From positions 448,001 through 512,000 of the forward strand of contig CBDEFO010000007.1 of assembly GCA_965237525.1 (NCBI GenBank): a stretch of DNA of 64,000 bases, read 5' to 3'. A program made the translations under genes and the position numbers. The first letter of the stretch is position 1, and each line of letters begins with the position of its first letter. Shown here one piece after another: positions 16,607 to 40,780 of the stretch. The notes under the pieces are model-generated. The model was not told the DNA's origin, did no database searches, and saw only the letters and a program-made list of their open reading frames with translations. Origin of the DNA: Candidatus Latescibacterota bacterium (GTDB lineage Bacteria > Latescibacterota > CBDEFO01).

Positions 16607-17033
16607 TTTTTCCTCCCTTGAGAAAACGTTCCCTGGCTATTACGTTTTTTTGTCCAGGGAGACTGAAGAGATTGAAGGGTTTTCTATGAACTTTTCCAGA
16701 AAAAAGAAAAAATGTTTTTGAAAAAGTTACTGTCTAAGGGTTCAAACCCTTCAGTCCTTCACTATTCTCTCTATGTTTTTGAAGCCGGAAACCACGATAG
16801 TAAACGCTACCGCCGTTCCTCTATCCCAGCCCGCGAAGCCCGGCTCATCAGGTGGATATTGGAATAAAGGGCCCACATCTGGAGAAGCCAATTGGCCGGT
16901 CGCGGCAGGCTGACAACTCGGATCTTAACTCGCTGGAAGGAGATGGAACATGAGAAAACGCAGCATAGTTGCCTATACGGTCCTAGCCGTCGCATTAACA
17001 GCTCTTGATGTCAATGGAGAGGGGTAAGCTAAC

Positions 17034-19571
17034 ATGCAGGATAATTCAGGTGCACCCATGGAGTGGATGAAACTGGATCGAGACAAGGGCTACGTAGTAT
17101 TCAATTACGGTACGCTTAAGAACCTGCCGCCTTCGCACGTACCCACTCCGGATGACGTTGCGAAGGAGGTTTCATGCGCGTTAGCCAGGGATGAGTACGA
17201 GTCTATTCAGTTCGGCGTGCACGCGCTGTCGGACGACATCAAAGATATACAGGTGAAGGTGGAATCAGACCTGCAAGTGACCATTTATCATCGGATCAGC
17301 CCGCGTGTTAAAGAAAAACTGGCATCCGAACCAGCCGAATTGGATGAGATTGCGCGGCGGACACCAAGTCAGATACATCTGCAGCGAGGGAACGTGTTTG
17401 AAGAGCTTCCGACAGGTCAGAGCGTCAACTTCTGGCTTACGTTCAGGGCGGATGCCGAGACGACAGAGGGTCTGCACCGGGGGAAGGTCCGGATAGAAGC
17501 TGTGGGCAGGCGGGGGACTGTGCTGGATCTCGAGGTGAAGGTGCGGCCGTTCCAGCTTCAGCGCCCCAGAGTGCCGTTTGGCGTGTACTTTCGAGAAGAC
17601 ATGCTTCCGAAACGTTTTGGGGGCTTGGCGACGCCGAAGGAATCGGTACTGGCCATGTACCGGGACATGGCGGAGCACGGCCACAATTCCAGTTGGTTCT
17701 ACCCGACCGGAAGCTTTCGCGACTTGCCGCCCAGGAACGGCCATGCGCTTGATAAGCTGATCCCGCTGGCCCAGCAGGCCGGCCTCCTTGACCCGGAAGT
17801 GCCCAGCTTTATCTGCGGCGGAATTCCCGGGGGCCTCAATGATGAGCAACTGAAGGCGGCGGCTGCCTGGTTGGAAGCCGAGCGAAGGCAACGGGGATGG
17901 CCTGAGTTGATTGTATTTGGCACGGACGAGCCGAGTTACCCGCGGGACTATGATGCTGTCAGCAGAGAGTTGAGGAATCTGCGCGGTTTTCCCGTGCGTG
18001 TGGCCGTGGATCTGTCCGGAACGTCGGCATACGGGTATGGCGGCGATCTTTGCGACATCCAGAACGTGATGGATGGAATGATCTCGCCTGAGATGCTGGA
18101 CGAGGCGAGACGCATAGGAACGGAAATCTGGACATATTCGTTTCGCATATGGCGAGAGGATTTCCATCCTTTCCGCCAGCGCTACTTTGCGGGCCTCTAC
18201 ACCTGGACATACCAGCTCGGGGGCAATTGGGTCTGGGCGTATCACCACGGCCCTCACCGGCATGTCTGGTTTGCGCCTGAGAGTCACGAGCCGATGCCCG
18301 TAACTGCCTGGGAGGCCCGGCGGGAAGGGATTGATGACTACCGATACCTGCAGATGGTCGAGGACTGCGTTGCGGCCAATCCAGACGAGACACTGGCGAT
18401 TGAAGCGTCAGCGTGGTTGCAGGCCCTGAGGGTCCGTCTTTCGGCCACCGTTCCCAACGAAGTGGAGGTCGGCAAGCCTCTGGAGCTTGATGAATACGAC
18501 CAGATTCGAGCCAGGGCGGCCGACTATATCCAGAGGCTGGGTCCTGTTTCGAACGAGGCTGTAGCTCGTCCGCCGATATCGCACGCCAAGGATGAGGCAG
18601 CATCTTACCGGGGTAAGTCGGTGAGACAGTGTATCGCCGGCCTGGCCAGTTCGGATGTGTCAGAACGTCGCGCTGCTGCCTGGGCACTCTTTGAGCTAGG
18701 ACCGAAAGCGGCGCAGGCCGCAGAGCCGCTGGCCCGGTTGCTTGATGATCCCGAGGTGCGAATACCCGCCCTGCACGCACTTGAGCACATCGGTCCGGAG
18801 GCATTTCGGGTAGTGCCCGAGATAGTACGGCTACTGAATCATCCCGATTTCTACGTTCGTGTGGGTGCCGTCTTGGCTCTGGGTGAGATCGGGTGCCCGT
18901 TGAATAAACGCGACCGCAGCGGGCGCAGATCGCCTTCGGAATGGGTCGCGATCGTCGCCGAACCGTTGATGGTCACCTACCGAGATGATGATGCATCGCT
19001 GTCATCCCAGGCCGCGGGAATGCTCTCCGTCATGGAGAATCTAGCCAAGCCCGTTCTGGCGGAGGCGATCACAATGCTCGATGACCCTTCTCACAGGCGT
19101 CAAAGCGCAGCAATCGGCCTCATCACTGGACTGGGTCCGGATGCCGCAGCAGCAGTGCCAAAGCTTATCGAAATGCACGAGAACAAATCTGAGGACATCA
19201 GGTACATTAACACGCTGGCTGCTATCGGTCCGGCTGCCAAATCGGCCATTCCGGTTCTGGAAGAATACGCTGCAAAGGAGGACTCCGGTCCTAACCGGGC
19301 AGAGTCATACTATGCGCTTTTCTGTATCCGGAATGAGCTTTCCGACCTCCGGAAAATGGTCGAATTGCTAAAGGACGCGGATGAGGACCTCGAGACGAAG
19401 AAGCGGGTTGTAAAGCTGCTCAATGAACTGGGAGCGAAGGCCGCACCTGTTGCGGATGAGATCCGCCAGATGGTCGAGTCGGGGAAGTTTTCCGATTGGG
19501 AAGAGGACCTGGAGTCTTTCCTTGACAAAGTGAAAAGGGGAGAGGTGCCGGGTGTTTCTTTCAGGTGGTAG
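17034..19571 (+). CDS. G2: GH123/DUF4091-like plus HEAT protein; its signal peptide (ATG 16950) is cut off by an in-frame TAA at 17025
   Basis: FGTDEPSYP, WEARREGIDDYRYLQM, HEAT repeats; GGG TAA GCT here versus GGG GAA GCC in G1. Confidence 0.7.
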   Translation: MQDNSGAPMEWMKLDRDKGYVVFNYGTLKNLPPSHVPTPDDVAKEVSCALARDEYESIQFGVHALSDDIKDIQVKVESDLQVTIYHRISPRVKEKLASEPAELDEIARRTPSQIHLQRGNVFEELPTGQSVNFWLTFRADAETTEGLHRGKVRIEAVGRRGTVLDLEVKVRPFQLQRPRVPFGVYFREDMLPKRFGGLATPKESVLAMYRDMAEHGHNSSWFYPTGSFRDLPPRNGHALDKLIPLAQQAGLLDPEVPSFICGGIPGGLNDEQLKAAAAWLEAERRQRGWPELIVFGTDEPSYPRDYDAVSRELRNLRGFPVRVAVDLSGTSAYGYGGDLCDIQNVMDGMISPEMLDEARRIGTEIWTYSFRIWREDFHPFRQRYFAGLYTWTYQLGGNWVWAYHHGPHRHVWFAPESHEPMPVTAWEARREGIDDYRYLQMVEDCVAANPDETLAIEASAWLQALRVRLSATVPNEVEVGKPLELDEYDQIRARAADYIQRLGPVSNEAVARPPISHAKDEAASYRGKSVRQCIAGLASSDVSERRAAAWALFELGPKAAQAAEPLARLLDDPEVRIPALHALEHIGPEAFRVVPEIVRLLNHPDFYVRVGAVLALGEIGCPLNKRDRSGRRSPSEWVAIVAEPLMVTYRDDDASLSSQAAGMLSVMENLAKPVLAEAITMLDDPSHRRQSAAIGLITGLGPDAAAAVPKLIEMHENKSEDIRYINTLAAIGPAAKSAIPVLEEYAAKEDSGPNRAESYYALFCIRNELSDLRKMVELLKDADEDLETKKRVVKLLNELGAKAAPVADEIRQMVESGKFSDWEEDLESFLDKVKRGEVPGVSFRW

Positions 19572-20197
19572 TCCTGATGTCACTTTGGAATTGCTGGCCG
19601 AATCAGACGGGACGGTTCTATTTGATCGAATTGCCGTCAACTGCCCCGTCAAGATAGGCAATGGCTTGCATAAAAAACCTCTATCAGTTCCTGTGCGGTT
19701 GGTCAGTTGTTTCCATGTCATTGGAGGCGAACAAAGAGATCAGGGCCAATAGCATTCGGCGTGCTCATTGCTGCCCGGCGTTCAGGGTCGAATTTTGATT
19801 GTGCCGGCATAGATGCTGGTTATGGGCTTGGTGGCGTGGGCGATCCTGGCGCCGTTTGTCGCCTTGGCGGAGGCCGGCGAGGTCAAAGTGACCGTACCCA
19901 GACAACCGAATCTGGAGGTAATTGATCTCTTCACCAACAAGGTAGTGGCTCGCCTCGACGCCGGACCTTCGACGTCAAGCTTAGACGGAACTTCCAGGGG
20001 AGGCTCTACCACCTGCGGCTGGCAGGTAACTGATAGCTCTTGTTTTGAAGGTGAACTCATGTCCCGGCCTAGCAAACCGGATCATCAGGTGGATATTGGA
20101 ATAAAGGGGAAATAAACGGCCCATATCTGGGAAAGCGAGTTGTCCGGTCGCAGCGTGCGGACAACTCGGATCTTAACTCGCTGGAAGGAGATGCAAC
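19572..20197 (+). repeat. Array spacer module (dead gene end plus conserved leader); other copies at 25757-26195 and 28740-29362, partial copies at 2671-2730+4033-4296 and 16845-16949
   Basis: Shared blocks such as GAGGTCAAAGTGACCGTACC, CAGGTGGATATTGGAATAAAGGG and CGGATCTTAACTCGCTGGA. Confidence 0.9.
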
Positions 20198-22801
20198 ATG
20201 AGAAAACGCAGCATAGTTGCCTATACATTGCTGGCCGTTGGATTAACGGCTCTCAATGCCTGTGGGCCCATGGAGTGGATGAAACTGGATCGAGACAAGG
20301 GTTACGTTGTCTTTAAGTACAGCACGCTTAAGAACCTGCCGCCTTCGCACGTGCCCACGCCGGGCGACGTTGCCGAGAAGGTTTCATGCTCGTTAGCCGG
20401 GGATGAGTACGAGCCGGTTCAGATTGGTGTTCACGCGCTGGCAGGTGGCTTGACCAACATCCGGGTCACGGTGATATCTGACCTCAAGGTGACGGTCTAT
20501 CACCGCATCGATCCAGGCATCAAGCAACAAGTGGCCTCAGAACCCGGCGCGACGGTGCTAATGCGGGTGCCAAGCGAAGTGTATTTGCAGCGAGGAGAGG
20601 TTGTTGGCGAACTTGCTAAAGGCGAATCCATCAATTTTTGGCTGCTGTTCCGTGCTGATGCTGAAACTTCTCCCGGCGTGCATCAGGGTAAGATCCGCAT
20701 TAAGCCGGACGGGCGGGCAGCGACGGAGTTGGACCTGGCGGTGCGCGTCAGGCCTTTTCAACTGGCGGCACCGCGAGCAGTATTTGGCATGTGGTTTCGG
20801 GAGGATATGTTACCTGAGCGATTTGGATCCTGGGAGATAGAGGATCAGGATGCTCTGGCGATTTACCGGGATATGGCGGCGCACGGCCAGAACTCGGTCA
20901 CATTATATCATGCGGGACACTACGCCCAGTTGCCGCCACGAGGCAGCCGGATGATGGACAAGTCCCTTGCACTGGCCGTCGAGGCGGGGCTTATTCGCCC
21001 GGAAATTCCTGTTGTAGCCGTGCAAGCCGGAATCACCGGCCCGGCGTTTTCCCAAGCGCAGACGGAAGCGGCGGTGGCGTGGCTGGAGACGGAGCGGCGC
21101 AAGCGCGGCTGGCCGGAAATCATAATATTCGGCCGGGATGAAGGGCTTTATCCAGCGCCTGGGCTGAGAGAAACCTACGCTCCTCTGCGCCCGTTGCCCA
21201 TTCGCCTTATGACGGACACGGGTCACATCTCGACGCCGTACGCGTATGGTGATTTTCACGACGTGTTGAGCTTAGCCGATGGTATAGGCCCACCCGAGGT
21301 GCAGGCCGAGGCCAGCCGGATGGGCGCAGAAGTCTGGACCTATTCCTATCGCGTATGGAGGGAGAACTACAGCCCGCTTTGTGAGCGATACTATGCGGGG
21401 CTGTACCCGTGGGCACACAGGATCGGCGGCAATATGGTCTGGGTATACTCGGGCACCGGGGTTCACAGTCACGTCTGGTGGAAACCAGACAGCAACGAGC
21501 CGATGCCCATTACGGGTTGGGAGGGCCGCCGCGAAGGCGTTGACGACTACCGCTACCTTCAGATGGTCGAGGATCTTGTGCAGGCGAAGACGCCCGCCCC
21601 GTTAGCCATCGAGGCGGGGGTATGGCTGGAGGCGCTGAGGGCACGCCTCGCGCGCACGGCCATCAAAACGTACGATGTGGAGGCCGGCAAGCCCCTGGAT
21701 ATCGAGGAATATGACGCGATTCGAGCCACGGCGGCCGATTACATTGAGAAGCTCGGCCCGGTGGCGGACCGAGAAGAGCCACCCGTAGTCAGGGGTCTGA
21801 AAGACGAGGCTGCCGCCTTCCGCGGCAAATCGGTGGAACAGTGTGTCGCGGGACTGGGTGGTTCTGATGTCTGGCAGCGCCGGGCGGCGGCGTGGGCCTT
21901 GGTTGAACTGGGTCCCCAGGCCGCTCAAGCCACACCGGCGCTTGTCCGATTGCTCGATGATCCGGAAGTTCGCTTCCCCGCCTTGCGCGCACTTGAGGCG
22001 ATCGGCCCCGAGGCGTATCCGGCGTCGTCGAAACTAACCTCGCTTCTGTCACATCCCGATGCTTTCGTGCGCCTGGGCGCGACTTTTGCCTTGGCCGGCA
22101 TCGCTGGCCCACGGAGCTGGGATGTCGCTGTGAGCGGATATGCACCCGAGGATGTGTCGCCGTATGCTCATATGGTCGTGGCGCCGTTGCGGCAAGCGCT
22201 GCGTGATTCGTATTTGGACATCGCGCGGGTTGCTGCGTACGGGCTATCCCGTTGCGGCGAGGTCGCTGCACCGGCACTTCCCGACGCCATGAGGCTGGTC
22301 GCGGGCAAACCCACCGACGCGTCCACCGCCGCGATGCGGGTACTGGCCGGGATGGGACCGGCAGCCGCGGCTGCCGTCCCCCTTCTGATCAAATCTTACG
22401 CGGCCGCCGAAGGAAAAGATCGCGCCATCACCTGGACGCTGGCAGCCATCGGCCCGGCTGCGTCCGACGCCGTTACGGTCCTGGAGCAGTACCGCACGCC
22501 GGAAAACCCGCACCTGGCTGACACCTGCTACGCCCTGTTCTGCATTCGCGGCGAGGAATCAGACCTTAAAACAATGGCCGGGCAGCTGGGTGACAAGAGC
22601 CGGCCGGGGGGTTCCTCAGAATGGCAGGACGTCATCAGATTCCTCAATGCCCTCGGCGCCCGAGCTGCACCCGTCGTCCCCCTGGTGCTAGAGCGATTAC
22701 GGCTCCTGGACTCTGAACCTGATCTGAAGCGCCAACTCGAGTCGATACTTCTCCAAAGAGTCAAAAAAGGTGAAAGTCCCCTCAGATTGCTGCCGCGCTG
22801 A
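20198..22801 (+). CDS. G3: GH123/DUF4091-like plus HEAT protein with a lipoprotein-like signal (LNAC)
   Basis: MRKRSIVAYTLLAVGLTALNAC; FGRDEGLYP; WEGRREGVDDYRYLQM; HEAT repeats. Confidence 0.7.
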   Translation: MRKRSIVAYTLLAVGLTALNACGPMEWMKLDRDKGYVVFKYSTLKNLPPSHVPTPGDVAEKVSCSLAGDEYEPVQIGVHALAGGLTNIRVTVISDLKVTVYHRIDPGIKQQVASEPGATVLMRVPSEVYLQRGEVVGELAKGESINFWLLFRADAETSPGVHQGKIRIKPDGRAATELDLAVRVRPFQLAAPRAVFGMWFREDMLPERFGSWEIEDQDALAIYRDMAAHGQNSVTLYHAGHYAQLPPRGSRMMDKSLALAVEAGLIRPEIPVVAVQAGITGPAFSQAQTEAAVAWLETERRKRGWPEIIIFGRDEGLYPAPGLRETYAPLRPLPIRLMTDTGHISTPYAYGDFHDVLSLADGIGPPEVQAEASRMGAEVWTYSYRVWRENYSPLCERYYAGLYPWAHRIGGNMVWVYSGTGVHSHVWWKPDSNEPMPITGWEGRREGVDDYRYLQMVEDLVQAKTPAPLAIEAGVWLEALRARLARTAIKTYDVEAGKPLDIEEYDAIRATAADYIEKLGPVADREEPPVVRGLKDEAAAFRGKSVEQCVAGLGGSDVWQRRAAAWALVELGPQAAQATPALVRLLDDPEVRFPALRALEAIGPEAYPASSKLTSLLSHPDAFVRLGATFALAGIAGPRSWDVAVSGYAPEDVSPYAHMVVAPLRQALRDSYLDIARVAAYGLSRCGEVAAPALPDAMRLVAGKPTDASTAAMRVLAGMGPAAAAAVPLLIKSYAAAEGKDRAITWTLAAIGPAASDAVTVLEQYRTPENPHLADTCYALFCIRGEESDLKTMAGQLGDKSRPGGSSEWQDVIRFLNALGARAAPVVPLVLERLRLLDSEPDLKRQLESILLQRVKKGESPLRLLPR

Positions 22802-22899
22802 AGAAGGGCTCGTCGCCGCGGTTGCTCATCTGGAATCAGAGGGAGATAATACTTATATACAGGCGGGACTGCTTGTTCAATTATTTCCGCGTTGAAAAC

Positions 22900-22928
22900 T
22901 TGACCGGGCTTTCCGATAATGCTAAAAT
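22900..22928 (+). promoter_or_regulatory. Sigma70-type promoter upstream of G4
   Basis: TTGACC-17 nt-TAAAAT with extended -10 TG. Confidence 0.55.
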
Positions 22929-23146
22929 TCAGAATACTGGAACAAGACAAAGTCTCAGAAAAACATGTCCGACCCTGGCTGAAAAAACTAGCTTCGTGTC
23001 ATTTCACCGGCCGCAAAAGAGTTACCTAATTATTGAGCCTTAACAAAAGCGACCTTTTTTTATTGACTCAAACCGACGGCAAGGGCAAAACAGTCCTTCA
23101 TGCGAGGACAATCCGGAGTAACGCCGAGCGAAAGGAGAGAGGCAAG

Positions 23147-25756
23147 ATGAGAATGTATAGTCTTATGGCAACAGTATTGTTGATGGGACGCAGTCTGGGA
23201 GCAGGGACGGGATACGCCGAGAACGGTGAAGGCGGGCCGGGGACAAACTGGACGGCAGCCGAAAAGCTGAAGGGGTACGTGGTCTTTGAGTACAGTACGC
23301 TGGAGAATCTTCCGCCCGCTCACGTACCGACTAGGGAGGCGATCGTGGACACGGTCTCATGCGCTTTAGCCAGGGATGAGTACGAGTCTATTCAGTTCGG
23401 CGTGCACGCGCTGGCCGATAGCTTGACGAACATCCGGGTCACGGTAGTATCTGACCTCGAGGTGACGGTCTATCACCGCATCGATCCAGGCATCAAGCAA
23501 CAACTGGCGTCAGAACCAGCCGAATTGGATGAGATTGCGCGGTGGGTGCCGAGCCAGATACATCTGCAGCGAGGGGACGTGTATGAAAAACTTCCGGCAG
23601 GCCAGAGCGTCAACTTCTGGCTGACATTCCGGGCGGATGGTGAGACGCCAGAGGGTCTGCACCTGGGGAATATCCGAATAGAGGCTGCGGGCAGGCGGGG
23701 GACTGTGCTGGGTCTCGAGGTGAAGGTGCGGCCGTTCCAGCTTCAGCGCCCCAGAGTGCCTTTTGGCGTGTACTTTCGAGAAGACATGCTGCCGAAACGT
23801 TTTGGGGGCCTGGCGACACCGAAGGAATCGGTACTGGCGATGTACCGGGACATGGCGGAGCACGGCCACAATTCCAGTTGGTTCTACCCGTTGGGAAGCT
23901 TTAGCGACTTGCCGCCCAGGAACAACTATGCGCTTGACAAGCTGATCCCGCTGGCCCAGAAGGCCGGCCTCCTTGACCCGGAAGTGCCCAGCTTGATCGC
24001 AGGCGGAATTCCCGGGGGCCTCAATGATGAGGAACTGAAGGCGGCGGCTGCCTGGTTGGAAGCAGAGCGCACGCAACGGGGATGGCCTGAGTTGATTGTA
24101 TTTGGCACGGACGAGCCGAGTTACCCGCGGGACTATGATGCTGTCAGCAGAGAGTTGAGGAATCTGCGCGGTTTTCCCATGCGGGTGGTCGTGGATCTGT
24201 CTGGAACGTCGGCATACGGGTATGGCGGCGATCTTTGCGACATCCAGAACGTGATGGATGGAATGATCTCGCCTGAGATGCTGGACGAGGCGAGACGTGT
24301 GGGAACAGAGATCTGGACGTATTCGTACCGCATATGGCGCGAGCATTTCTATCCTTTCAGCCAGCGCTACTTTGCGGGGCTCTACACCTGGACATACCAG
24401 CTCGGGGGCAATTGGGTCTGGGCGTATCACCACGGGCATCACCGGCATGTCTGGTTTACGCCTGAGAGTCACGAGCCGATGCCCGTAACTGCCTGGGAGG
24501 CCCGGCGGGAAGGGATTGATGACTACCGATACCTGCAGATGGTCGAGGACTGCGTTGCGGCCAATCCAGACGAGACACTGGCGATTGAAGCGTCAGCGTG
24601 GTTGCAGGCCCTGAGGGTCCGTCTTTCGGCCACCGTTCCCAACGAAGTGGAGGTCGGCAAGCCTCTGGAGCTTGATGAATACGACCAGATTCGAGCCAGG
24701 GCGGCCGACTATATCCAGAGGCTGGGTCCTGTTTCGAACGAGGCTGTAGCTCGTCCGCCGATATCGCACGCCAAGGATGAGGCAGCATCTTACCGGGGTA
24801 AGTCGGTGAGACAGTGTATCGCCGGCCTGGCCAGTTCGGATGTGTCAGAACGTCGCGCTGCTGCCTGGGCCCTCTTTGAGCTAGGACCGAAAGCGGCGCA
24901 GGCCGCAGAGCCGCTGGCCCGGTTGCTTGATGATCCCGAGGTGCGAATACCCGCCCTGCACGCACTTGAGCACATCGGTCCGGAGGCATTTCGGGTAGTG
25001 CCCGAGATAGTACGGCTACTGAATCATCCCGATTTCTACGTTCGTGTGGGTGCCGTCTTGGCTCTGGGTGAGATCGGGTGCCCGTTGGATAAACGCGACC
25101 GCAGCGGGCGCAGATCGCCTTCGGAATGGGCCGCGATCGTCGCCGAACCGTTGATGGTCGCCTACCGGGATGATAATGCATCGCTGTCATACCTGGCGGC
25201 GGGAATGCTCTCCGTCATAGGTGGGTTTGCCAGGCCCGCTCTGCCGGAGGCGATCACAATGCTCGATGACCCTTCTCACACGCGTCAAAGCGCAGCAATC
25301 GGCCTCATCACTGGACTGGGTCCGGATGCCGCCGCAACAGTGCCAAAGCTCATCGAAATGCACAAGAACAAATCTGAGGACATCAGGTACATTAACGCGC
25401 TGGCTGCTATCGGCCCGGCTGCCAAATCGGCCATTCCGGCTCTGGAAGAATATGCTGCAAAAGAGGACTCCGGTCCTAATCGGGCAGACTCATACTATGC
25501 GCTCTTCTGCATCCGGAATGAGATTTCCGACCTGCGGAAAATGGTCGAGTTGCTAAAGGACGCGAATGAGAACACCGATACGAAGAAACACGTTGTAAAA
25601 CTCCTCAACCAACTGGGAGCGAAGGCCGCACCTGTTGGGGATGAGGTCAATCAGATGCTCAAGTCGGGAGAGTTTTCCGACTGGGAAGAGGACCTGCAGT
25701 CTCTCCTTGAGAAAGTTGAGACGGGAGAGGTGCCGGGTGTTTCTTTCAGGTGGTAG
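23147..25756 (+). CDS. G4: secreted GH123/DUF4091-like plus HEAT protein
   Basis: AAGGAG RBS; distinct signal MRMYSLMATVLLMGRSLGAGTGYA; body nearly identical to G2. Confidence 0.7.
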   Translation: MRMYSLMATVLLMGRSLGAGTGYAENGEGGPGTNWTAAEKLKGYVVFEYSTLENLPPAHVPTREAIVDTVSCALARDEYESIQFGVHALADSLTNIRVTVVSDLEVTVYHRIDPGIKQQLASEPAELDEIARWVPSQIHLQRGDVYEKLPAGQSVNFWLTFRADGETPEGLHLGNIRIEAAGRRGTVLGLEVKVRPFQLQRPRVPFGVYFREDMLPKRFGGLATPKESVLAMYRDMAEHGHNSSWFYPLGSFSDLPPRNNYALDKLIPLAQKAGLLDPEVPSLIAGGIPGGLNDEELKAAAAWLEAERTQRGWPELIVFGTDEPSYPRDYDAVSRELRNLRGFPMRVVVDLSGTSAYGYGGDLCDIQNVMDGMISPEMLDEARRVGTEIWTYSYRIWREHFYPFSQRYFAGLYTWTYQLGGNWVWAYHHGHHRHVWFTPESHEPMPVTAWEARREGIDDYRYLQMVEDCVAANPDETLAIEASAWLQALRVRLSATVPNEVEVGKPLELDEYDQIRARAADYIQRLGPVSNEAVARPPISHAKDEAASYRGKSVRQCIAGLASSDVSERRAAAWALFELGPKAAQAAEPLARLLDDPEVRIPALHALEHIGPEAFRVVPEIVRLLNHPDFYVRVGAVLALGEIGCPLDKRDRSGRRSPSEWAAIVAEPLMVAYRDDNASLSYLAAGMLSVIGGFARPALPEAITMLDDPSHTRQSAAIGLITGLGPDAAATVPKLIEMHKNKSEDIRYINALAAIGPAAKSAIPALEEYAAKEDSGPNRADSYYALFCIRNEISDLRKMVELLKDANENTDTKKHVVKLLNQLGAKAAPVGDEVNQMLKSGEFSDWEEDLQSLLEKVETGEVPGVSFRW

Positions 25757-26195
25757 CCCTGATATCACTTTAGAATCGCTGGCCGAATCGGACGGGACGG
25801 TCTATTTGACCGAATTGCCGTCAACTGCCCCGTCAAGATAGGCAATGGCTTGCAGAAAAAACACCTATCAGCTCCTGTGCAGTTGGTCAGTTGTGTCCAT
25901 GTCATTGGAGAACGAATAAAAGGATCAGGGCCAATAGCGTTCGGCGTGCCCATTGCTGCCCGGCGTTCATGCTTGAATTTTGATTGTGCCGGAATGGCTT
26001 GGGGGCGTGGGCGATCCTGGCGCCGTTTGTCGCTTTGGCGGAGGCCGGCGAGGTCAAAGTGACCGTACCACGACAACCGAATCTGGAGGTAATTAATCTC
26101 TTCACCAACAAGGTAGTGGCCCGCTTGGAGGCCAGACGACGGGCCTTCGACGTCTGGATTAACGGCTCTCAATGTCAACGGAGGGGGAAGCTAAC
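25757..26195 (+). repeat. Array spacer module with an internal deletion removing the leader and signal-peptide start
   Basis: TTCGACGTC is joined directly to TGGATTAACGGCTCTCAATG at about 26155. Confidence 0.85.
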
Positions 26196-29362: not shown

Positions 29363-31957
29363 ATGAGAAAACGCAGCATAGTTGCCTATACATTGCTGGC
29401 CGTTGGATTAACGGCTCTCAATGCCTGTGGGCCCATGGAGTGGATGAAAGTGGATCGAGACAAGGGTTACGTTGTCTTTAATTACAGCACGCTTAAGAAC
29501 CTGCCGCCTTCGCACGTGCCCACGCCGGGCGACGTTGCCAAGCAGGTTTCATGCACCTTAGCCGGGGATGAGTACGAGCCGGTTCAGATTGGTGTTCACG
29601 CGCTGGCCGATGGCTTGACGAACATCCGGGTCACGGTGGTATCTGACCTCGAGGTGGCGGTCTATCACCGCATCGATCCAGGAATCAAGCAACAAGTGGC
29701 CTCAGAACCCGGCGCGACGGTGCTAATGCGGGTGCCAAGCGAAGTGTATTTGCAGCGAGGAGAGGTTGTTGGCGAACTTGCTAAAGGCGAATCCATCAAT
29801 TTTTGGCTGCTGTTCCGTGCTGATGCTGAAACATCTCCCGGCGTGCATCAGGGTAAGATCCGCATTAAGCCGGACGGGCGGGCGGCGACGGAGCTGGACC
29901 TGGCGGTGCGCGTCAGGCCTTTTCAACTGGCGGAGCCGCGAGCAGTATTTGCCGTGTACTTTCGTGAGGATATGTTACCCAAGCGATTTGGATCCTGGGA
30001 ACTGGAGGATCAGGTTGCGCTGGCGTTTTACCGTGATATGGCTGCGCACGGGCAGAACTCGGTTACATTCTATGGTGGGGGAGACTACCGGACCGAGTTG
30101 CCGCCACTAAACAGCCGGATGGTGGAGAAATCCCTCGCATTGGCCAAAAAGGCGGGGCTCACTCGCCCGCGAATTCCCGTTGTAACCGTGGCCAGCATGG
30201 TCGGTGACGACATTTCCCGAACGCAGCAGAAGGCGGCAGTGGCCTGGTTGGGGAAGGAGGGGCGCCGGCTCGGCTGGCCGGAGATTGTCTTATTCGGTCG
30301 GGATGAAGGGATGTATCCAGCGCTCAGGTTTCGGAAAATCTTTACTCCCCTGCGCCCGTTGCCGATTCGCGTGTCGGCGGATATGAGTCACATCTCGCCG
30401 GCGTACGCCTATGGTGATTTTCTCGACGTGTGGACTGTGCACGACGGCTTGCTCACACCCGAGTTGCAGGCCGAAGCCAAACGGATGGGTGCAGAGGTCT
30501 GGAGCTACTCCTATCGCATATGGAGGCAGAGCTTCAGCCCGATTACTCAGCGCTACTACGTCGGACTGCACACCTGGGCGCACCGGATCGAAGGCAATTG
30601 GCTGTGGGCATACTCTCACGGGCCTCACAGTCAGGTGTGGTGGAAACCGGACAGCCACGAGCCGATGCCCCATACTGGTTGGGAGGGCCGCCGCGAAGGC
30701 GTTGACGACTATCGCTACCTGCAGATGGTCGAGGACCTGGTCGAGGCGAAGACACCCGACCCGACAGCCATCGAGGCGGGGGCGTGGGTGGAGGCGCTAA
30801 GGGCACGCCTGACGCTAAAATCCATCCTGCCGCACCAGGTGGAGGCAGGCACGCCGTTAACGATTGAGGAGTATGACGCGATTCGAGCCACGGCGGCCGA
30901 TTACATTGAAAAGCTCGGCCCGATAGTGGACCGGAAAGAGCGGCGGACCGGTAGGGGTCTGAAGGACGAGGCTGCGGCCTTCCGCGGCAAGTCGGTGAAA
31001 CGGTGTATCGCGGGGCTGCGTGGTTCTGATGTTTCTAAACGCCGGGCAGCTGCGTGGGCGCTGTATGAACTGGGCCCCCAGGCCGCTAAAGCCACGCCGG
31101 CGCTTATCTCGTTGCTCGATGATCCGGAAGTGCGCTTTCCGGCCCTACATGCACTCGAGGCGATCGGCCCCGATGCGTATCCGGCGGCGACGAAAATAGC
31201 CTCGCTGCTGTCACATCCTGATGCTGTCGTGCGCCAGGGCGCGACGTTCGCCCTGGCCGGCATCGCCCGCCCACGAAACTGGGATGAAGATTTCAACGGA
31301 TATGCACTCGAGGATGTGTCGCCGTATGCTCACGTAGTCGTACCTGCGTTGCGGCAAGCGTTGCGTGATTCGCATCAGGACATCGTGTGGATAGCCGGGT
31401 ACGGGCTGTCCCGTTGCGGCGAGGCCGCTGCACCGGCACTGTCCGACGCAATGAAGCTGGTCGCAGGCAAACCGCACGATAACGTCGGCGCCGCGACGCG
31501 GGCGCTGGCCGGGATGGGGCCGGCAGCCGCGGCAGCCGTCCCGCTTCTAGTCGAGCATTACACCGCTGCCAAAGCCAAAGATCGCTATGTCACGCTGGCG
31601 CTGGCAGCCATTGGACCGGCTGCATCCGACGCCGTTGCCGTCCTGGAGCGGTACCGCACGCCGCAAAACTCACACCTGGCTGACACGTGCTACGCCCTGT
31701 TCTGCATTCGTGGCGAGGAGTCAGACCTCAAAACAATGGTCGGGTTGCTGGGCGACAAGGAGAATTGCGGGGCGTGGGAGGATGTCGTCAGGTACCTCAT
31801 CGCTCTCGGCGCCAAAGCCGCACCGGTCGCCCCCCTGGTGCGGGATCGATTGTCCCTTCTGAAGGCTAGACCTGATCTGGTCAGCCAACTCGAGTTGACA
31901 TTTTTCCGCAGAGTTGAGGAAGGCGGAAGCCCCCTCAGGTTGCTGCCGTACAACTGA
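29363..31957 (+). CDS. G6: GH123/DUF4091-like plus HEAT protein with a lipoprotein-like signal
   Basis: N-terminus almost identical to G3, centre like G5, C-terminus of the G1/G3 type (SPLRLLP). Confidence 0.7.
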   Translation: MRKRSIVAYTLLAVGLTALNACGPMEWMKVDRDKGYVVFNYSTLKNLPPSHVPTPGDVAKQVSCTLAGDEYEPVQIGVHALADGLTNIRVTVVSDLEVAVYHRIDPGIKQQVASEPGATVLMRVPSEVYLQRGEVVGELAKGESINFWLLFRADAETSPGVHQGKIRIKPDGRAATELDLAVRVRPFQLAEPRAVFAVYFREDMLPKRFGSWELEDQVALAFYRDMAAHGQNSVTFYGGGDYRTELPPLNSRMVEKSLALAKKAGLTRPRIPVVTVASMVGDDISRTQQKAAVAWLGKEGRRLGWPEIVLFGRDEGMYPALRFRKIFTPLRPLPIRVSADMSHISPAYAYGDFLDVWTVHDGLLTPELQAEAKRMGAEVWSYSYRIWRQSFSPITQRYYVGLHTWAHRIEGNWLWAYSHGPHSQVWWKPDSHEPMPHTGWEGRREGVDDYRYLQMVEDLVEAKTPDPTAIEAGAWVEALRARLTLKSILPHQVEAGTPLTIEEYDAIRATAADYIEKLGPIVDRKERRTGRGLKDEAAAFRGKSVKRCIAGLRGSDVSKRRAAAWALYELGPQAAKATPALISLLDDPEVRFPALHALEAIGPDAYPAATKIASLLSHPDAVVRQGATFALAGIARPRNWDEDFNGYALEDVSPYAHVVVPALRQALRDSHQDIVWIAGYGLSRCGEAAAPALSDAMKLVAGKPHDNVGAATRALAGMGPAAAAAVPLLVEHYTAAKAKDRYVTLALAAIGPAASDAVAVLERYRTPQNSHLADTCYALFCIRGEESDLKTMVGLLGDKENCGAWEDVVRYLIALGAKAAPVAPLVRDRLSLLKARPDLVSQLELTFFRRVEEGGSPLRLLPYN

Positions 31958-32325
31958 AGAATGAGTCGCAAGGAGCAGTAGCATGAGTGACTAAATCGTG
32001 GATATTCATAAACACCAACGGTATCGGTACACGTATTCGGCCGCCCATGAAGCGATTGCGAATGTAGAGCCAGGGCAGCGTGTACGTATTCACTGTGTGG
32101 ACTGCTTTGAGAATCGCCTGGTGCGCGAAGACCAAAGTTGTTCCGAGGTCTGTGAATATCCGTACTTAAACCCGCAAACAGGACCGGTCTACGTCAATGG
32201 CGAGGAGGGGGGCGACACCCTGCTCGTGCACATTGATGACATCGAAATTACTCGGGACTGGGCGGTTACGGGTTAGGGGTTGAATATCAAATGAAATCGG
32301 TGCACCTAATTTGATCTTTGTTTAG

Positions 32326-33844
32326 AAGCCTTGTGAAATAGTTATGTCCCAGGCAGCGTCTGAAGCGCCGATTATGGGTCAAAGAGTAGCATATCGTATC
32401 GTTTTGCTGTGGAATAAGCAAAATAGTCTTATCAGAGTTCTGGTCAGCAAGGAACAGGAGCTGTTTGAAGAACAGGATGCACTGTCTTTGACAGACAGGG
32501 CACACATAGACGCTTTCCCCCTTCTTATGAAAGATACAAGCCTCTTGAGATTCTGTACTGTTGCAACAAGATTCAACTGTTCATTCAGTGAGGCTGGTCC
32601 TCTATAACGGGCTCGTCCCATACCGTGTTGTTGCCTGGCTTCAGCAAAGATATGTTCACTGCGTTTACGGAGTCTCCGGGAGAGTTTGTAGTCAGCTGTT
32701 AATGAGATAGACCGTGCATGATTTCTGGCTTTCGCCTCTCGCACTTTTCTATCCCGTTCGGCCTGAATATGTGCTGGATTTGTCTTGTTTTTCCATGTAG
32801 GAATCGGTTCAATCTTCTCATCGGCTCGCAGAGGAATATGGGGTATGATTCCCCGGTCAAGTACATCAGCGATAAAATTACCAGAACCGTAACCGGTATC
32901 GGCACTAAGTGTCTGAATGTCTTTGGGCATGGTGTATGTTTCAAGGTCATCTACCATCTTAAGGGCACTTTCGGGCTCTGCTGTCCCTGTCGCCTGCGTG
33001 CCCTGAGTCTCAAGGATTACTCTGCTTTTTGTGTCGATCAGATCATGGCCCATAAACGAGAGAAAAGCCCCTTTGCCCTTCGATTTGCTGTATAAGCGCG
33101 CGTCGGGGTCTGTAGTCGAACGGTGTGTTTGGTTCGTCCACTTTTCACCATGAAAGTCTTTATCCTGAGGATGCCCGGACCTACCCTTTGTCTTATCACC
33201 TTCAAAACCGATTCCCTTGAGATAATCATCAAGAGAAACAGGGGGTTCTATCGGCTCAATACTTTTCACTGAAGCATCAGCTTGTATCTGAGTGCCGTCG
33301 ACACTAAGGTGTTTACCGCTCACAAGACCGACATCTATGCAACACTGGACTACCTGACGCATTATCCGTTCAAACAACCCACTGGATGCCCACTTGTGAT
33401 TGCGAAGCTTGTTGATCGTGCTCCTATCCGGAACCGCATCATCAAATGTCTGATGACAAAACAACCGATATGCCGCATGCATCCCCACTTCCTGACAGAG
33501 CCGATTCTCACTCAAATTATACAGATAGCCAATAAGGATCATTCGAACAACTAATTCAGGATCAATACCGGGTCTGCCATTGTCAGGGCAATAACAATCT
33601 GATACAACGTCTCGTACAAATGAAAAATCAACTGCCTCATCAATCTGACGAAGGATATGATCCTCGGGAACTAAATCCTCCATCTGAAAATAGTGAAACA
33701 TCGGATTTGTCTGTTCCTGCTTTTGTGGGGTCATTGTTTCCTCCATGTATAATATTATCAATAACATAATATAATACATCGGAGCTGCTTTATCAATGCT
33801 TGTTCTATACTACTTTCTGAATCTAAGGGTTTTTCACAAGGCTT
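32326..33844 (-). mobile_element. IS1182-family-like element (1519 bp) nested in IS copy 2
   Basis: 13-bp perfect TIR AAGCCTTGTGAAA; 4-bp TSD TTAG; copy 1 shows the empty site. Confidence 0.9.
32379..33779 (-). CDS. IS1182-like DDE transposase (true start probably MTPQK, about 33734)
   Basis: LVPEDHILRQID..GRPGIDP (DUF772-like), VDGTQIQA, STTDPDARL, ADTGYGS, RKRSEHIFAE. Confidence 0.88.
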   Translation of the reverse strand: MYYIMLLIILYMEETMTPQKQEQTNPMFHYFQMEDLVPEDHILRQIDEAVDFSFVRDVVSDCYCPDNGRPGIDPELVVRMILIGYLYNLSENRLCQEVGMHAAYRLFCHQTFDDAVPDRSTINKLRNHKWASSGLFERIMRQVVQCCIDVGLVSGKHLSVDGTQIQADASVKSIEPIEPPVSLDDYLKGIGFEGDKTKGRSGHPQDKDFHGEKWTNQTHRSTTDPDARLYSKSKGKGAFLSFMGHDLIDTKSRVILETQGTQATGTAEPESALKMVDDLETYTMPKDIQTLSADTGYGSGNFIADVLDRGIIPHIPLRADEKIEPIPTWKNKTNPAHIQAERDRKVREAKARNHARSISLTADYKLSRRLRKRSEHIFAEARQQHGMGRARYRGPASLNEQLNLVATVQNLKRLVSFIRRGKASMCALSVKDSASCSSNSSCSLLTRTLIRLFCLFHSKTIRYATL

Positions 33845-33902
33845 TTAGAGTATTAGTAGATTAAGTTGAGTTGATTGTCTTAACTTTAATCTACGGAGTC
33901 CT

Positions 33903-35093
33903 ATGGACAAAGAGAGATTGGCCGTATTAAGACAAGAAGTCAACGAGATGTATTTTAAGAAAGAAATGTCAAAGCGAGAAGTTATCAAACAAGCGAGAGT
34001 TTCCAATGATTTCGTTACGGCTTGGACTAAATCTCTGGATCAGGATTTTGCCATGGATAATCGGGGTTGGCCAAAAGGAAAAAGGCGAAAATTGGCTAAA
34101 GTTGACGAACAGAGAATCAAAGAGATTTACCATAGCTTAGAGGACGATCCTTATCAGTTCTATTCAGGAGCCACTGTTATTGAACAAGAATGGAGGAATC
34201 GATATTCTAGCACCCCTCCTCCGTCGTTGCCGACTATCGGCAGAATGCTTTCAGATTTAGGACTTTCCCAGAGAAGGAAGAAAGGTAAAAACAAGGGTGC
34301 ATCTCGTTATCTTTGTTATCCAGAGTATACCATTTACTATCTTTCAGGAGGCAGAGTCCTAGAATCAGACTTTATTGGTAAAAAGTATCTTACCGGCAGA
34401 ACTGAGCCGGTCAACTTCGTTGGATTTTCCTTTAAGAAAGAGCCTAAGTTAAGGTATTTTCGGCGGGTTGACGGTCAAACAGCAACTAACTTTATCGAGA
34501 AGTGTCAGTCTTTCTTTGACAGGTTTGAAAAACCAGATTTCGTTAAGGTGGACAATTGCTCGGCGACTATTGGCAGTGTTTCAGGTAAAAGGAATGTCAG
34601 CAAAGCAATGCAGTTTCTCTTGAAAAATCAAGTGATTCCGATATTTGCCGTTCCCAGAAGGCCCTTTTCTCAAGCATCTATAGAAGGCAACAATTCTGTA
34701 TTTTCAAGGAAGTTCTGGAACAGAATTCAGTTCAAAAGCTTACAAGAAGTTGATCAGAAGTTAGAATGGTTTAATCTTTCATCACAGAGATACACCGGCT
34801 ACCGTCCACCTAAGCAAGAGAAGTCAAACGAGAAAGATTTCATTCCCAAGACCTATTTTATCAGACAAGTCAAACAGGACACAGAACAGACAGATAAAGC
34901 CTTTATCGATGTCCTAAATGAGAAAGTATCTCTTCCCTCCTCTTACACCAACTACTTTGTCCTGGCTGAATGGAACCTAAAAGAAGAACAATTATACATC
35001 CATTTTGAAAAAGAACAGAAACCAAAGATTGTCGAAAACCTATCATTCAAGATCAATCAAAGATCGAAAGAGAAGTGCACCGATTTCATTTGA
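33903..35093 (+). CDS. DDE transposase, copy 2
   Basis: Identical to 2833-4023 apart from KSPD to KSLD. Confidence 0.85.
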   Translation: MDKERLAVLRQEVNEMYFKKEMSKREVIKQARVSNDFVTAWTKSLDQDFAMDNRGWPKGKRRKLAKVDEQRIKEIYHSLEDDPYQFYSGATVIEQEWRNRYSSTPPPSLPTIGRMLSDLGLSQRRKKGKNKGASRYLCYPEYTIYYLSGGRVLESDFIGKKYLTGRTEPVNFVGFSFKKEPKLRYFRRVDGQTATNFIEKCQSFFDRFEKPDFVKVDNCSATIGSVSGKRNVSKAMQFLLKNQVIPIFAVPRRPFSQASIEGNNSVFSRKFWNRIQFKSLQEVDQKLEWFNLSSQRYTGYRPPKQEKSNEKDFIPKTYFIRQVKQDTEQTDKAFIDVLNEKVSLPSSYTNYFVLAEWNLKEEQLYIHFEKEQKPKIVENLSFKINQRSKEKCTDFI

Positions 35094-35800
35094 TAAATAA
35101 CCGTTAGGTGCCGAGATTTGGCCTGCTCACGGGAAGCACGGTTATGGCAATGCTTACCGAGAGTCTTCCTGAAGTGGTGCGCAAACTACCCATTCGCGAC
35201 GACCGCGTGTGGTTTGGCAAGCTCAGCCGGCGACTATCGCGCCTTATGGGTACCGTGGGCACGGCACCCAAGCTCGAAGCCATTAATGCCCTGACGCCTT
35301 CTTATTATGGTGGCAACATGGATTGTGCTGAGACCTGTTCGGGCAACACGTTGCACCTTCCTGTCCACAACGCAGGCGGACTTTTTTTCTGTGGTGACGG
35401 GCACGCGACACAGGGCCACGGCGAGATTGGCGGCGTGGCGTGCGAAGTGCCGGTGAATCTGATTTGCCGTTTTGAGTTGATCAAGGGCCAGGCCATCAAA
35501 TGGCCGCGAATAACCAACGACCACTACATGATGGTCATCGGCAGTGCGAGGCCACTCGAGGACGCGACGCGGATCGCGTGCGCCGAACTGATTGATTGGG
35601 TTGCGAGAGAATATGATATGGATCGCACGGATGCCTTGGTATGGATCACACAGATACTGGAACTGCGTGTGGGCAATGTGTGTGACCCTAATTACTCGGG
35701 TCGTTGCCGCGGTGCCTCGAAGTGCACTCGAGAGAAGGCCTAAAGCGCGTACCAAGACATTGTGAGGAACGATTCACTGACGAAATTAGGAGGTTTGAAC

Positions 35801-38800
35801 ATGGGACACCGTAGCATGATTGTTCTTGCACTGCTGGCAATTGGTTTAGTGGCGGTCAGTACACGTGGACAAGGAGAGGCGAGCGCGAAGGACAAGTGGA
35901 CCAAAGCCGAACGGGACAAGGGTTATGTGGTCTTCGCCTACTCCACGATGAAAAACCTGCCGGCAGGCCACGTACCGCGTCGGGACAGCACTGTAAACAG
36001 GCTTACATGCGTGTCCTCGCAACAGATGAGTATGAATCGCTCCAATTCGGTGTGCACGCGATTGCTGACGATCTCGAGGCTATATCGGTGAATGTAGAGT
36101 CAGACCTTGATGTTACCGTATATCACCGGATTCTGCCAGCTGTCAAGGAACAACTGGCACTCGAACCCATGGATTCGGGGGAGGTCAGCGGCTGGATACC
36201 GAGCAAAATTCTGTTGCAGCGGGGGAATGTGTTTCCTGTCCTTGGAGCAGGGCAGAGCGTCAACTTCTGGCTGACGTTTCACGCCGACCGGGACACCAAG
36301 CCTGGTCGGCATCTGGGAAAGGTCCGGATAAGAACGGCCGGTAAGTCACCAACCTTTGTAGATTTGGCGATAACGGTGCGCCCATTCGCGTTACAGCGCC
36401 CGCGAATTCCGTATGGCATGTGGTGCCGCGAAGATATGCTGCCGAAGCGTTTCGGCGGCGTGTCGACACCGCGGGAGACGATGTTAAAGATTTACCGGGA
36501 CATGGCAGTGCACGGCCAAAACGCCGGTGCCTTCTATCCGGCCGGCAACTTTTTCCCCGTGGCGCCGGAGAACGACCACGTACTGCACAAGTTGCTGCCA
36601 TTGGCGAAGGAGGCCGGACTCGTTGATCCTCAGGTCAGCAGCACGTTGATCGGCGGCATCACAGGGGGGTACACGCGTGAGCAGGTGGAGGAGGAGGCAT
36701 CCTGGCTGCAGGCCGAGTGCCGCGAGAAGGGTTGGCCGGAGCTTGTCGGTTTCGGCCCGGATGAGCCGGACTATCCGGAGGAAGACATCGAGGTCAGGGA
36801 GGCTTGCGAGTCGATGCGCGGTACCTCGTTTCGGATGAATCTGGATCAATCCGAGCTTTCTGCAGTATACGGCTACTCCACGTATGGACTGTACGACATT
36901 CAAACGGCAGCAGAGGGCGTGGTTACACCGGAGGTCATGGCCGAAGCAAAGCGCCTGGGGACCGAGATGCAGGTCTATTCTTACACTATATGGCGGGATG
37001 GTTTCTATCCCGTGCGCCAGCGTTATTTCGCCGGACTCCACACTTGGTCGTTGGGGCTCCGTGGTAATTGGATCTGGGCCTATAATCATGGAAAGCACCG
37101 GCATGCCTGGTTTGCACCGGGCAGTGATGAGCCGCAGCCGGTAACCGGTTGGGAGATGCGCCGCGAGGGCGTCGATGACTATCGTTATCTGCAGATGCTC
37201 GAGGATGCCGTGGCGGCAAATCCCGAGAAGCCGCTGGCGCGGGAGGCGAAGTCATGGTTGGCGGGCTTGCGGGCGCGACTGGAAAAAATCACCCAGCCCC
37301 TGGACGTGGTGGCCGGCAAACCATTGGCACTTGCCGAATACGACGAAATTCGCGCCAGGGCTGCGTCCTACATTCAGCGCCAGGGCCCGATTCCACCTAC
37401 GGCTGTGGCGCGCCAGCCGAGGCTCCGCCCGACGGATGAGGCGGCTCCCTTCAGGGGCAAGTCCGTGGCGGCGTGCATAAAGGGGTTGCGTGATGCTGAC
37501 GCGTCACAGCGTCGTGCGGCAGCCTGGGCCCTTTTTGATATGGGGCCGAAGGCAGCGGCGGCGACAGCGACGCTTGCACAGCTGCTTGATGACGACGATG
37601 TACGGATGCCGGCGTTGCATGCCCTCGAGGCCATCGGTCCGCAGGCGTATCCGGCTGTACCGCAAATCGCGCGCCTGCTGAAGCATCCGGATTCCTACTT
37701 CCGCATGGGGGCGGTGCTAACGCTCGCGAGGATTGGTTGCCCGTTGGATAAGCGCGTAAAAAGTGGGCGTCGATCGCCGTCGGCACAGGCTGCCACTGTC
37801 GCCGGACCGCTGACGGGTGCCTTACTGGATGATCAACCCGTCGTAGCGCGCAAAGTCGCGACAATCATCTCAGCGTTGGGGCCGGCTGCGAAGCTGGCAA
37901 TTCCGACGGTAATCGTCATGCTTGAGTCCTCCAACCGCGCCACTCGCGCCTCTGGAGTCGCCCTGATCACCGGCCTCGGGCCGGATGCCGCCGGGGCAGC
38001 GGCAACGCTGGCGGCACTGCACGCGAAGAGTCCCGGCAACAGCGCCGTCATAAAGGCACTGGCTACCATCGGGCCAGCCGCCGAGATGGCCATACCGGCA
38101 CTAGAGAAATACGCCGCGAAGGACGATCCCGGCAACGAGCAGGCAGAGTCTTATTATGCCCTCACCTGTATCCGCGGAGGGACTGCGGACCTGTGGAAAA
38201 TGGTCGACTTGCTCAAGAACCCGAGGGTAACGGTGGTTACGAAGAATTACGTCGTCACGCTTTTCGATGAATTGGGCCCTAGAGCCGCGCCCGTTGCCGA
38301 CGCTGTTCGCAGCCTGACGAAAGACGGCAAGTTCACCAATACCAAGAGAGTATCCGGTTTCGGCAAGACGTCACCGGCCGAGGCGCACTACTTGGATGGC
38401 GCTGATTGTCGGAACCTTGTCCCGCGGTTGAGGGTCTTGGCGCGACTGCCGATCGACGGTTGGCGGTTTAAGGACGATCCCCGGGGAGTCGGCGTTGAAG
38501 AGGGATATTTCAGGCCGGATTTTCCGTCCGCAAATCTTAGCGAAATAAAGATCGCCGAGTTCTGGGACGAGCAAGGATTCAAGGACCTCAGAGAGGGATG
38601 GTATCGGCTTCGATACAAGTGTCCGGACTTGCCTGACGGCAAGCGGTTGTTCCTCCATTTCGGAGCCGTCGATGAATCCGCCTGGCTCTATGTCGATGGC
38701 AAGCTCGTCGCCTGGTACGACACCGCCGATCCAGACGAGACCTGGAGCAAGCCGTTCCTTCTGGACGTGTCGGGCAGCCTCAAGAGCCAGGGCGAGCATC

Positions 38801-38877
38801 TGCTGGCGATCAAGGTACACAACTATGCCGGTTCTGGCGGACTCTATAAGCCGGTGAGTCTGATGGTCGAAAAGTGA
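35801..38877 (+). pseudogene. G7: GH123/DUF4091-like plus HEAT plus C-terminal GH2-type sugar-binding domain; +2 frameshift at about 36011
   Basis: AGGAGG RBS and signal peptide in one frame, VLATDEYESLQ onward in another (GTGT duplication); C-terminal LFLHFGAVDESAWLYVDGK..GGLYKPV. Confidence 0.7.
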
Positions 38878-40735: not shown

Positions 40736-40780
40736 CTGTTCTTATTTCACATTAGGTGCGTTTTATGAAGGAGGATCGAA

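Follow-up and report, generated by a model that had tools for sequence, protein, structure and literature searches.

Mosaic tandem genes for predicted GH123-like glycosidases with HEAT-repeat tails in a Latescibacterota genome

Gene content of the array

The window analysed here is a stretch of 64,000 nucleotides (positions 448001-512000 of contig C7) from the 4.58 Mb, eight-contig genome of a Candidatus Latescibacterota bacterium (G000), and it contains seven long paralogous genes, all on the plus strand, in which a region resembling GH123 glycoside hydrolases is fused to a long HEAT-repeat solenoid. One of them, G1, lies apart, G2 to G6 stand in tandem (17034-31957) and G7 lies beyond them, at the places where an earlier note, written from the letters of this DNA alone, had put seven paralogues. 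The array copies are true mosaics, not assembly errors. We consider it probable that they encode beta-N-acetylhexosaminidases of a GH123-like type with a HEAT tail, and that the mosaics arose by ordinary homologous recombination between near and distant paralogues. For comparison we used a genome of the same genus, assembled as a single contig (G001, hereafter "the relative"), which was the closest relative found in our search. The genes are:

4297-6861, plus strand: G1, GH123-like and HEAT gene with a signal peptide, apart from the tandem block
16950-17027, plus strand: signal-peptide leader of G2, beginning at ATG 16950 and ended by a TAA at 17025; the relative has the identical stop
17034-19571, plus strand: G2, 845 residues without the leader, catalytic Asp298-Glu299, structure predicted
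20198-22801, plus strand: G3, with a signal peptide, without a separate orthologue in the relative
23147-25756, plus strand: G4, of G2 type but for a leader and N-terminus of its own
26172-28739, plus strand: G5, chimeric, its body of the G3/G6 lineage and its HEAT tail of G2 type, without a signal peptide
29363-31957, plus strand: G6, with a signal peptide
35801-38877, plus strand: G7, the most divergent copy, with an extra C-terminal GH2-type sugar-binding domain; frameshifted here, intact in the relative

An eighth full copy, G8, is found on another contig (C8:731960-734596). Two further, shorter genes (C8:1297221-1298846 and C4:503487-505013) are distantly related to the catalytic part (27-30% identity); they possess the Asp-Glu motif and have no HEAT tail. 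A hydrophobic leader is present at the start of five of the seven proteins (G1, G3, G4, G6 and G7), while that of G2 is severed by the stop codon and G5 has none; by the same crude hydrophobic score, 70 of 81 full-length homologues have one. The frameshift of G7, near 36013-36015, consists of two extra bases relative to the intact orthologue and may be an assembly error. Where these proteins have been given names, they are only "HEAT repeat protein" or "hypothetical".

Predicted fold and active site

An AlphaFold2 model of G2, built from a 98-sequence alignment (predicted local distance difference test, pLDDT, 94.4; predicted template modelling score, pTM, 0.92), consists of a beta-sandwich (residues ~20-175), a barrel (~180-423), helices up to residue 505 and then an all-helical tail (530-835). 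GH123 and related beta-N-acetylgalactosaminidases rank first in both Foldseek and VIA-align, and the top 17 VIA-align rows are all of this kind. The best structural match, NgaDssm (8k2j), aligns over 431 residues within the N-terminal 505 residues of G2 (Z 26.4, root-mean-square deviation 3.2). A profile of 54 catalytic parts likewise matches NgaDssm (E 5.9e-18) and BvGH123 (5.5e-8), with the Asp-Glu pairs aligned. Among the 98 homologues, D298 and E299 are both kept in 97, and the pair is present in all eight copies of the genome. Three further positions, whose equivalence to residues of NgaDssm and NgaCa is taken from profile alignments and not from residue-level superposition, are about as conserved: the pocket residues Y368 in 95 and W401 in 98, and G397, the glycine before strand 8, in 98. 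According to the text of Sumida et al. 2024 (PMC11087588), the Asp-Glu pair of DUF4091 enzymes drives a substrate-assisted, retaining catalysis in which Tyr and Trp bind the substrate, and eight of the nine newly tested enzymes in its Table 1 cleaved a beta-GalNAc substrate.

The earlier note had proposed most of this: its varied Asp-Glu contexts (WDEPP, TDEPS, RDEGL, RDEGM, PDEPD) are as it stated, its GH123-like fold appears in the model as a sandwich, a (beta/alpha)8 barrel and DUF4091 helices, and its HEAT fusion agrees with Pfam HEAT_2 scores of 34-58 bits against a cut-off of 27.7 in all seven proteins. The search with Pfam models for GH123 itself came out negative, as no Pfam GH123 model matched the seven full-length proteins at E <= 0.01 and none exceeded its curated cut-off. 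Loose matches (E <= 0.1) occur among the 54 members for GH123_N (31), GH123_N_2 (17) and GH123_cat (17). A single-sequence phmmer search of the G2 catalytic part against the PDB gave nothing real, so that GH123 is reached by profiles and folds only, and the ESM Atlas returned the family's own unnamed cluster (0.98), with GH123 leads below 0.9. The extra domain of G7 resembles the sugar-binding domain of GH2 enzymes, and alphaRep proteins are among the structures that match the tail best. As the note had also supposed, no paper describing a GH123-HEAT fusion turned up in our literature search, which covered the main texts of openly accessible papers, and none linking Latescibacterota with GH123 did either; HEAT-fused proteins may be among the sequences listed in the supplement of PMC11087588. 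The array proteins thus appear to be an undescribed variant of GH123-like enzymes.

Mosaic structure of the copies

Pairwise identity in sliding windows swings strongly along the genes; G2 and G5, for example, share about 55% in the barrel and 93-99% over the tail. In a permutation test resembling the pairwise homoplasy index (PHI-like) on the eight genes, none of 500 shuffles was as compatible as the observed order of 1095 informative sites, and the same result (0/500) was obtained with third positions alone (514 sites). Trees of separate segments are incongruent, the barrel joining G5 to G3/G6 and the last HEAT segment joining it to G2/G4, at a bootstrap of 100. The following exchanged segments, all on the plus strand, can be delimited:

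18274-18902 in G2, shared with 24459-25087 in G4: recent conversion tract, with exact runs of 412 and 216 bases
23405-23501: G3/G6-type patch within G4, 96% to G6 in a copying model
28371-28397: crossover interval of G5, within the shared HEAT motif TLAAIGPAA
19230-20800: unit of G2 3' end, spacer and G3 5' end, recurring at about 28398-29950 as G5 3' end, spacer and G6 5' end

These agree closely with what had been noticed in the letters, and the recombination tests point the same way. The stretches of G2 and G4 said to be almost identical (18277-18900 and 24462-25085) differ at one of 624 bases, and the motif of the G3/G6-type patch is found in G4 at 23423-23503. The switch of G5 to the G2 C-terminus, placed near 28396, falls at 28397/28398 in the copying model, with 95% identity to G2 thereafter, and the repeat of about 1.5 kb that crosses a gene boundary has 91-100% identity per 100 bases over 19296-20795. 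The supposed "G1/G3-type end" of G6 is a different matter: it is only 80% like G3 and represents the normal tail of its own lineage, not a recent swap.

Short shared motifs bound both the G4 patch and the G5 switch in the copying model. The proportion of synonymous differences (pS) in the G2/G4 tract is 0 between the two copies, while both differ from the corresponding copy in the relative (H2, see below) with a pS of 0.114 in the DUF4091 region; the conversion is therefore younger than the split of the two genomes. That G5 is the recombinant follows from three foreign relatives of the G3/G5/G6 lineage, which have 67-79% identity to the G3 and G6 tails versus 43-46% to the G5 tail. Exchanges run in several directions, and both ways between copies; most swaps carry leaders, sandwich patches or HEAT tails and not the active-site barrel.

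The same mosaics in other assemblies

The relative is about 95% identical over the syntenic region, and its tandem array has three genes (H2, H5 and H6) versus five, followed by the intact G7 orthologue. H2 is G2-like through residue 153 and G4-like from there on, i.e. a G2/G4 fusion; H5 is 97% identical to G5 from residue 53 onward, chimeric tail included; and H6 corresponds to G6 with a G3-type loop (codons 402-415), although the relative has no G3. In a dispersed copy, H9, the body of G1 is joined to a segment of G8 type and the tail of G6, which indicates that distant loci also exchange. In a third assembly (a contig of 761,982 bases), G1, G4, G5 and G6 recur with 2-7 residue differences, start-site choices aside: the G5 chimera with seven, and G4, patch included, with three. 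The G2 allele of that assembly has 35 residue differences, 23 of which match G4, including the tail 769-818.

Short-read contigs from four runs cover 30, 28, 30 and 20 of 30 bins, none spanning the whole array; one of the runs, X1, may be the array's own source sample. The contig that crosses the G5 junction (28047-28424; runs X1 and X2) reaches 27 bases beyond the last shared base and is thus a marginal bridge. In X2, two depth bins over G2 (18081-19134) are empty and the matching G4 contig has a depth of 35, which would fit a wider G2/G4 homogenisation in that strain; we do not count missing cover as evidence.

Distribution and origin of the lineages

Of 7992 candidates scored in one search, 188 were homologues. 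Their loci belong to Planctomycetota, Lentisphaerota, Armatimonadota, Poribacteria and others, often with several per genome. Of 72 such loci 71 had a match, many of the loci being short, and more than two copies were seen only at the relative's array (L001). Within the phylum, 39 genomes besides these two were surveyed, and four had a match at E <= 1e-30 (175 bits at most, against 1100-1340); the main text of a paper on sponge Latescibacterota genomes (PMC12993501) does not mention GH123.

In a quick tree of 63 rows, G2/G4, G7 and G3/G5/G6 each cluster with proteins of Planctomycetota or Lentisphaerota. Monophyly of the G000 copies was rejected (approximately unbiased test, p-AU 8e-6), on a quick tree whose 21 rows were selected once the 63-row tree was known and with the relative's orthologue in place of G7. 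Since the copies do not form one clade, most of the enzyme diversity predates the array. The array genes have a guanine-plus-cytosine (GC) content of 58-63% in a genome of 49%, in which 7% of 2168 long open reading frames (ORFs) reach 58%. This, together with the grouping of the copies with other phyla, makes acquisition from other phyla likely.

Selection, machinery and other gene families

Paralogue families in tandem are numerous in the genome, and in some of them non-identical copies share exact tracts of more than 900 bases. Eight families chosen from the list of these were subjected to the PHI-like test, and six had a recombination signal (four at 0/500, one at 1/500 and one at 5/500), the other two giving none (380 and 395). 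Loss of mismatch repair as a cause of the shuffling was considered and rejected, given matches to MutS_I and MutL in open frames of 885 and 614 residues. A diversity-generating retroelement was likewise rejected: the reverse transcriptase family PF00078 has no match in G000 (96.6% complete), and its two matches in the relative both lie far from the array.

The ratio of nonsynonymous to synonymous rates (dN/dS), by region, was 0-0.64 for orthologue pairs and at most 0.90 for paralogue pairs, and nowhere exceeded 1. Pooling six orthologue pairs, and with loop limits drawn by hand from the secondary structure of the model, 33 of 560 codons were changed in pocket-face loops and 38 of 913 elsewhere in the barrel (p 0.13), so that positive selection on the pocket loops, judged against the rest of the barrel, is not significant. 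The ratios of nonsynonymous to synonymous changes (N:S) of the loops were alike in both comparisons (p 0.21 against the rest of the barrel, 0.15 against the back-face loops). Short conversion from other paralogues was also rejected as the source of the distinct pocket residues of G2, as most G2-only codons match no other copy. The shuffling is probably a known process, acting genome-wide, with no dedicated mechanism or positive selection seen.

The overall interpretation in the earlier note thus stands in part. A GH123-like fold, the Asp-Glu pair, the HEAT fusion and an origin of the mosaics by unequal crossover or gene conversion are supported; the idea that shuffling diversifies the repertoire is not, because the swaps lie mostly outside the barrel, the loops have no significant excess of changes, the barrel types are older, and six of the eight other families are mosaic as well.

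Proposed explanation and its alternatives

Under the explanation that we favour, at least three older enzyme lineages, likely from other phyla, would have been gathered into one catabolic region. Those copies that possess a leader would be exported; their expected reaction is the removal of beta-GalNAc-type residues from glycans through substrate-assisted catalysis, in which the acetamido group would be held by the Asp while the Glu serves as acid/base; here the fold is predicted, and the activity deduced from it. The solenoid probably forms an arm, rigidly joined to the rest, for binding or scaffolding. Both G5 and the repeated block of 3' gene end, spacer and 5' gene end would be explained by a single unequal crossover of a G6-like with a G2-like gene. 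Such crossovers would occur in short shared motifs, with later exchanges making tracts uniform or trading them between copies. The array of the relative, with its three genes, likely reflects a crossover between G2 and G4 that deleted G3, as the make-up of H2 and the G3-type loop in H6 suggest, the alternative being a gain in G000. Purifying selection would preserve the proteins, with some copies losing their leader or frame.

Several observations weigh against this explanation. Identity to solved GH123-type enzymes is only 10-17%, and the G2 catalytic part scores 13.7 bits against the GH123_N cut-off of 22, so the substrate may differ. Besides the way in which rows were picked for the monophyly test, the direction of change between five and three genes is read from two genomes. 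Some exchanges do reach pocket loops (the G3-type loop in H6), and pocket-face loops have more changed codons than back-face loops (33/560 versus 7/279, p 0.038 uncorrected), which leaves room for adaptive shuffling. One may consider that novel assortments of pocket loops, sandwich and solenoid were favoured by selection, making the array a variable glycan toolkit. When the barrel of G3 is compared with those of G5 and G6, dN/dS is indeed 0.81-0.90 in the pocket loops versus 0.38-0.43 elsewhere; the differences among three G8 alleles cluster at loops 2 and 3; and different strains carry different mosaics. Nevertheless, we regard this scenario as rather unlikely, in view of dN/dS values that stay below 1, pocket loops that show no difference in rate or in N:S from the remaining barrel, largest swaps that concern tails and leaders, and unrelated families that are shuffled as well. 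A broader version, in which this is a new glycosidase family of the GH123 clan with a solenoid that holds a polymer or partner clamped above the active site, and in which the genus brought together in one array lineages of several phyla and, under selection, recombines them into enzyme sets that are specific to strains, seems to us similarly improbable; if it were true, combinations of barrel and solenoid would tune the glycan diet of each strain.

It is also conceivable, and in our opinion quite unlikely, that the GH123 fold was kept for another sugar or linkage, or for binding glycans without cutting them, with the solenoid closing the pocket. The low identity to characterised enzymes, the restriction of GH123_cat matches to 17 of 54 members at a loose threshold, and a pTM of 0.92 that suggests a fixed geometry of solenoid and barrel would suit such a function, whereas the retained Asp-Glu, Tyr368 and Trp401, aligned with residues of NgaDssm, and the beta-GalNAc activity reported in PMC11087588 for nearly all newly tested DUF4091 enzymes argue against it. 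Programmed diversification, by silent cassettes, a site-specific shufflon or a diversity-generating retroelement, could explain many mosaics within a short evolutionary time, and the leaderless G2 and G5 could be read as donors. It is already largely refuted and must be considered very unlikely: besides the lack of a reverse transcriptase match in G000, the switch points vary in place and sequence, exchanges run in several directions, transposases are the only recombinases seen among 40 window proteins scanned, and the leaderless copies are still under purifying selection. As for mis-assembly of similar repeats or of mixed strains, the short-read contigs, which do not cross the array and barely pass the G5 junction, would allow for it. 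We hold it to be extremely improbable nonetheless, since the G5 chimera is found in the relative (97%) and in the third assembly, G4 recurs there with its patch, and the tracts bear substitutions of their own. Ordinary recombination among genes for GH123-like enzymes accordingly remains the explanation that we prefer.

Neighbouring features and other arrays

Other features of the array region are:

19813-20115, plus strand: decayed remnant (hydrophobic N-terminus and C-terminal piece) of an unrelated gene family
32320-33840, minus strand: insertion sequence with a DDE transposase ORF (32379-33779); ends approximate
33844-35106, plus strand: second repeated element, with an ORF at 33903-35093

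The remnant has a second copy at 28978-29280 and a partial copy upstream of G5, and decayed remnants thus sit in the spacers before G3, G5 and G6. The intact array of that family lies about 3 kb from G8 (C8:737651-758310, L087), and its six tandem genes encode proteins of up to ~770 residues with an N-terminal hydrophobic stretch; this family has no Pfam or PDB sequence match, and its copies are near-identical save for a few variable patches (recombination 0/500). Both repeated elements lie between G6 and G7. The first has 134 near-full copies in G000; it was detected 11 times in the relative and was not seen in four other genomes of the phylum. The second, likely an insertion sequence too, has 49 near-full copies in G000, one of which (99.8% identical, 2774-4036) lies immediately before G1; its 396-residue protein has no Pfam match. 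Between it and G7 is a partial acetamidase/formamidase-like ORF (35108-35743), largely missing at the equivalent place in the relative. A scan for promoters and terminators was uninformative (13 and 24 sites, versus 10.0 and 18.1 expected).

Directly upstream of the window are four tandem, mosaic DUF4838 genes (C7:435772-443419, L089; 0/500), which, with nearby BNR-repeat genes, form a wider catabolic region running into the window. Elsewhere in the genome, an eight-gene array (C6:308217-323697, L088), whose scanned member is a GT2 glycosyltransferase with TPR repeats and whose first member has a distinct, methyltransferase-like N-terminus (read by eye), has a 913-base exact tract between two copies (0/500). 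Four tandem GHL10-like genes (C8:376949-383202, L090) gave 1/500, and four tandem genes that by eye resemble the enolase superfamily (C4:507248-512476) gave no recombination signal. Further along the window, at 39197-41479, an ECF sigma factor gene with a long C-terminal extension has its last part recurring as the next gene (40106-40871 versus 40862-41639, 84% identity), and the region after the sigma gene is differently arranged in the relative; a membrane-anchored TPR protein (54675-56390) has internal repeats that are 74-81% alike at the DNA level.

Comparison with known systems

Pfam-level annotation overlooks these likely amino-sugar glycosidases, which form a multi-copy family in uncultured bacteria. 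The family is a source of new candidates for beta-GalNAcase tools, and its naturally occurring parents and chimeras could be used to probe the role of the solenoid. Three assemblies also make the array a clear example of recombination among catabolic genes within one species, although the process itself is known and not specific to this locus.

The array proteins share with solved GH123/DUF4091 enzymes (NgaDssm 8k2j, NgaCa 8k2f and BvGH123 5l7r; as described in the text of PMC11087588) the sandwich, the barrel, the DUF4091 helices, the adjacent Asp-Glu at the end of barrel strand 4, and the pocket Tyr and Trp. They differ in their low identity (10-17%), in the extra solenoid of 330 residues, in being multi-copy mosaics whose activity is predicted, and, in G7, in the added GH2-type sugar-binding domain. 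HEAT_2 or PBS-lyase-like (alphaRep-type) solenoids have similar tandem helical hairpins, the tail of the array being fixed behind a glycosidase-like domain.

As regards the genes, the closest likeness is to the lpl cluster of Staphylococcus aureus as presented by Tsuru and Kobayashi 2008 (PMC2568036, text). There, too, paralogues stand in tandem and their 5' and 3' parts give conflicting trees, a unit running from one 3' gene end through the intergenic region into the next 5' gene end is conserved, switch points sit in short motifs common to the copies, and unequal crossing-over explains why strains differ in copy number. According to that text, lpl recombines mainly at one central conserved region with little exchange between loci, whereas the array has scattered switch points, conversion tracts of up to 630 bases, exchange with distant loci (H9) and predicted enzymes from several older lineages. 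The icd/icdC and manB-cpsG chimeras of Escherichia coli, as their description goes (PMC13626634), arose when two paralogues became one hybrid by deletion, as we infer for H2; those are single events in laboratory lines, in contrast to a standing multi-gene set. Finally, the catabolic expansions of SAR202 (PMC10444878) also comprise many paralogous enzymes, with a proposed broadening of the substrate range, but the paralogues are called ancient and highly divergent in the text of that paper, which does not mention recombination or gene conversion.

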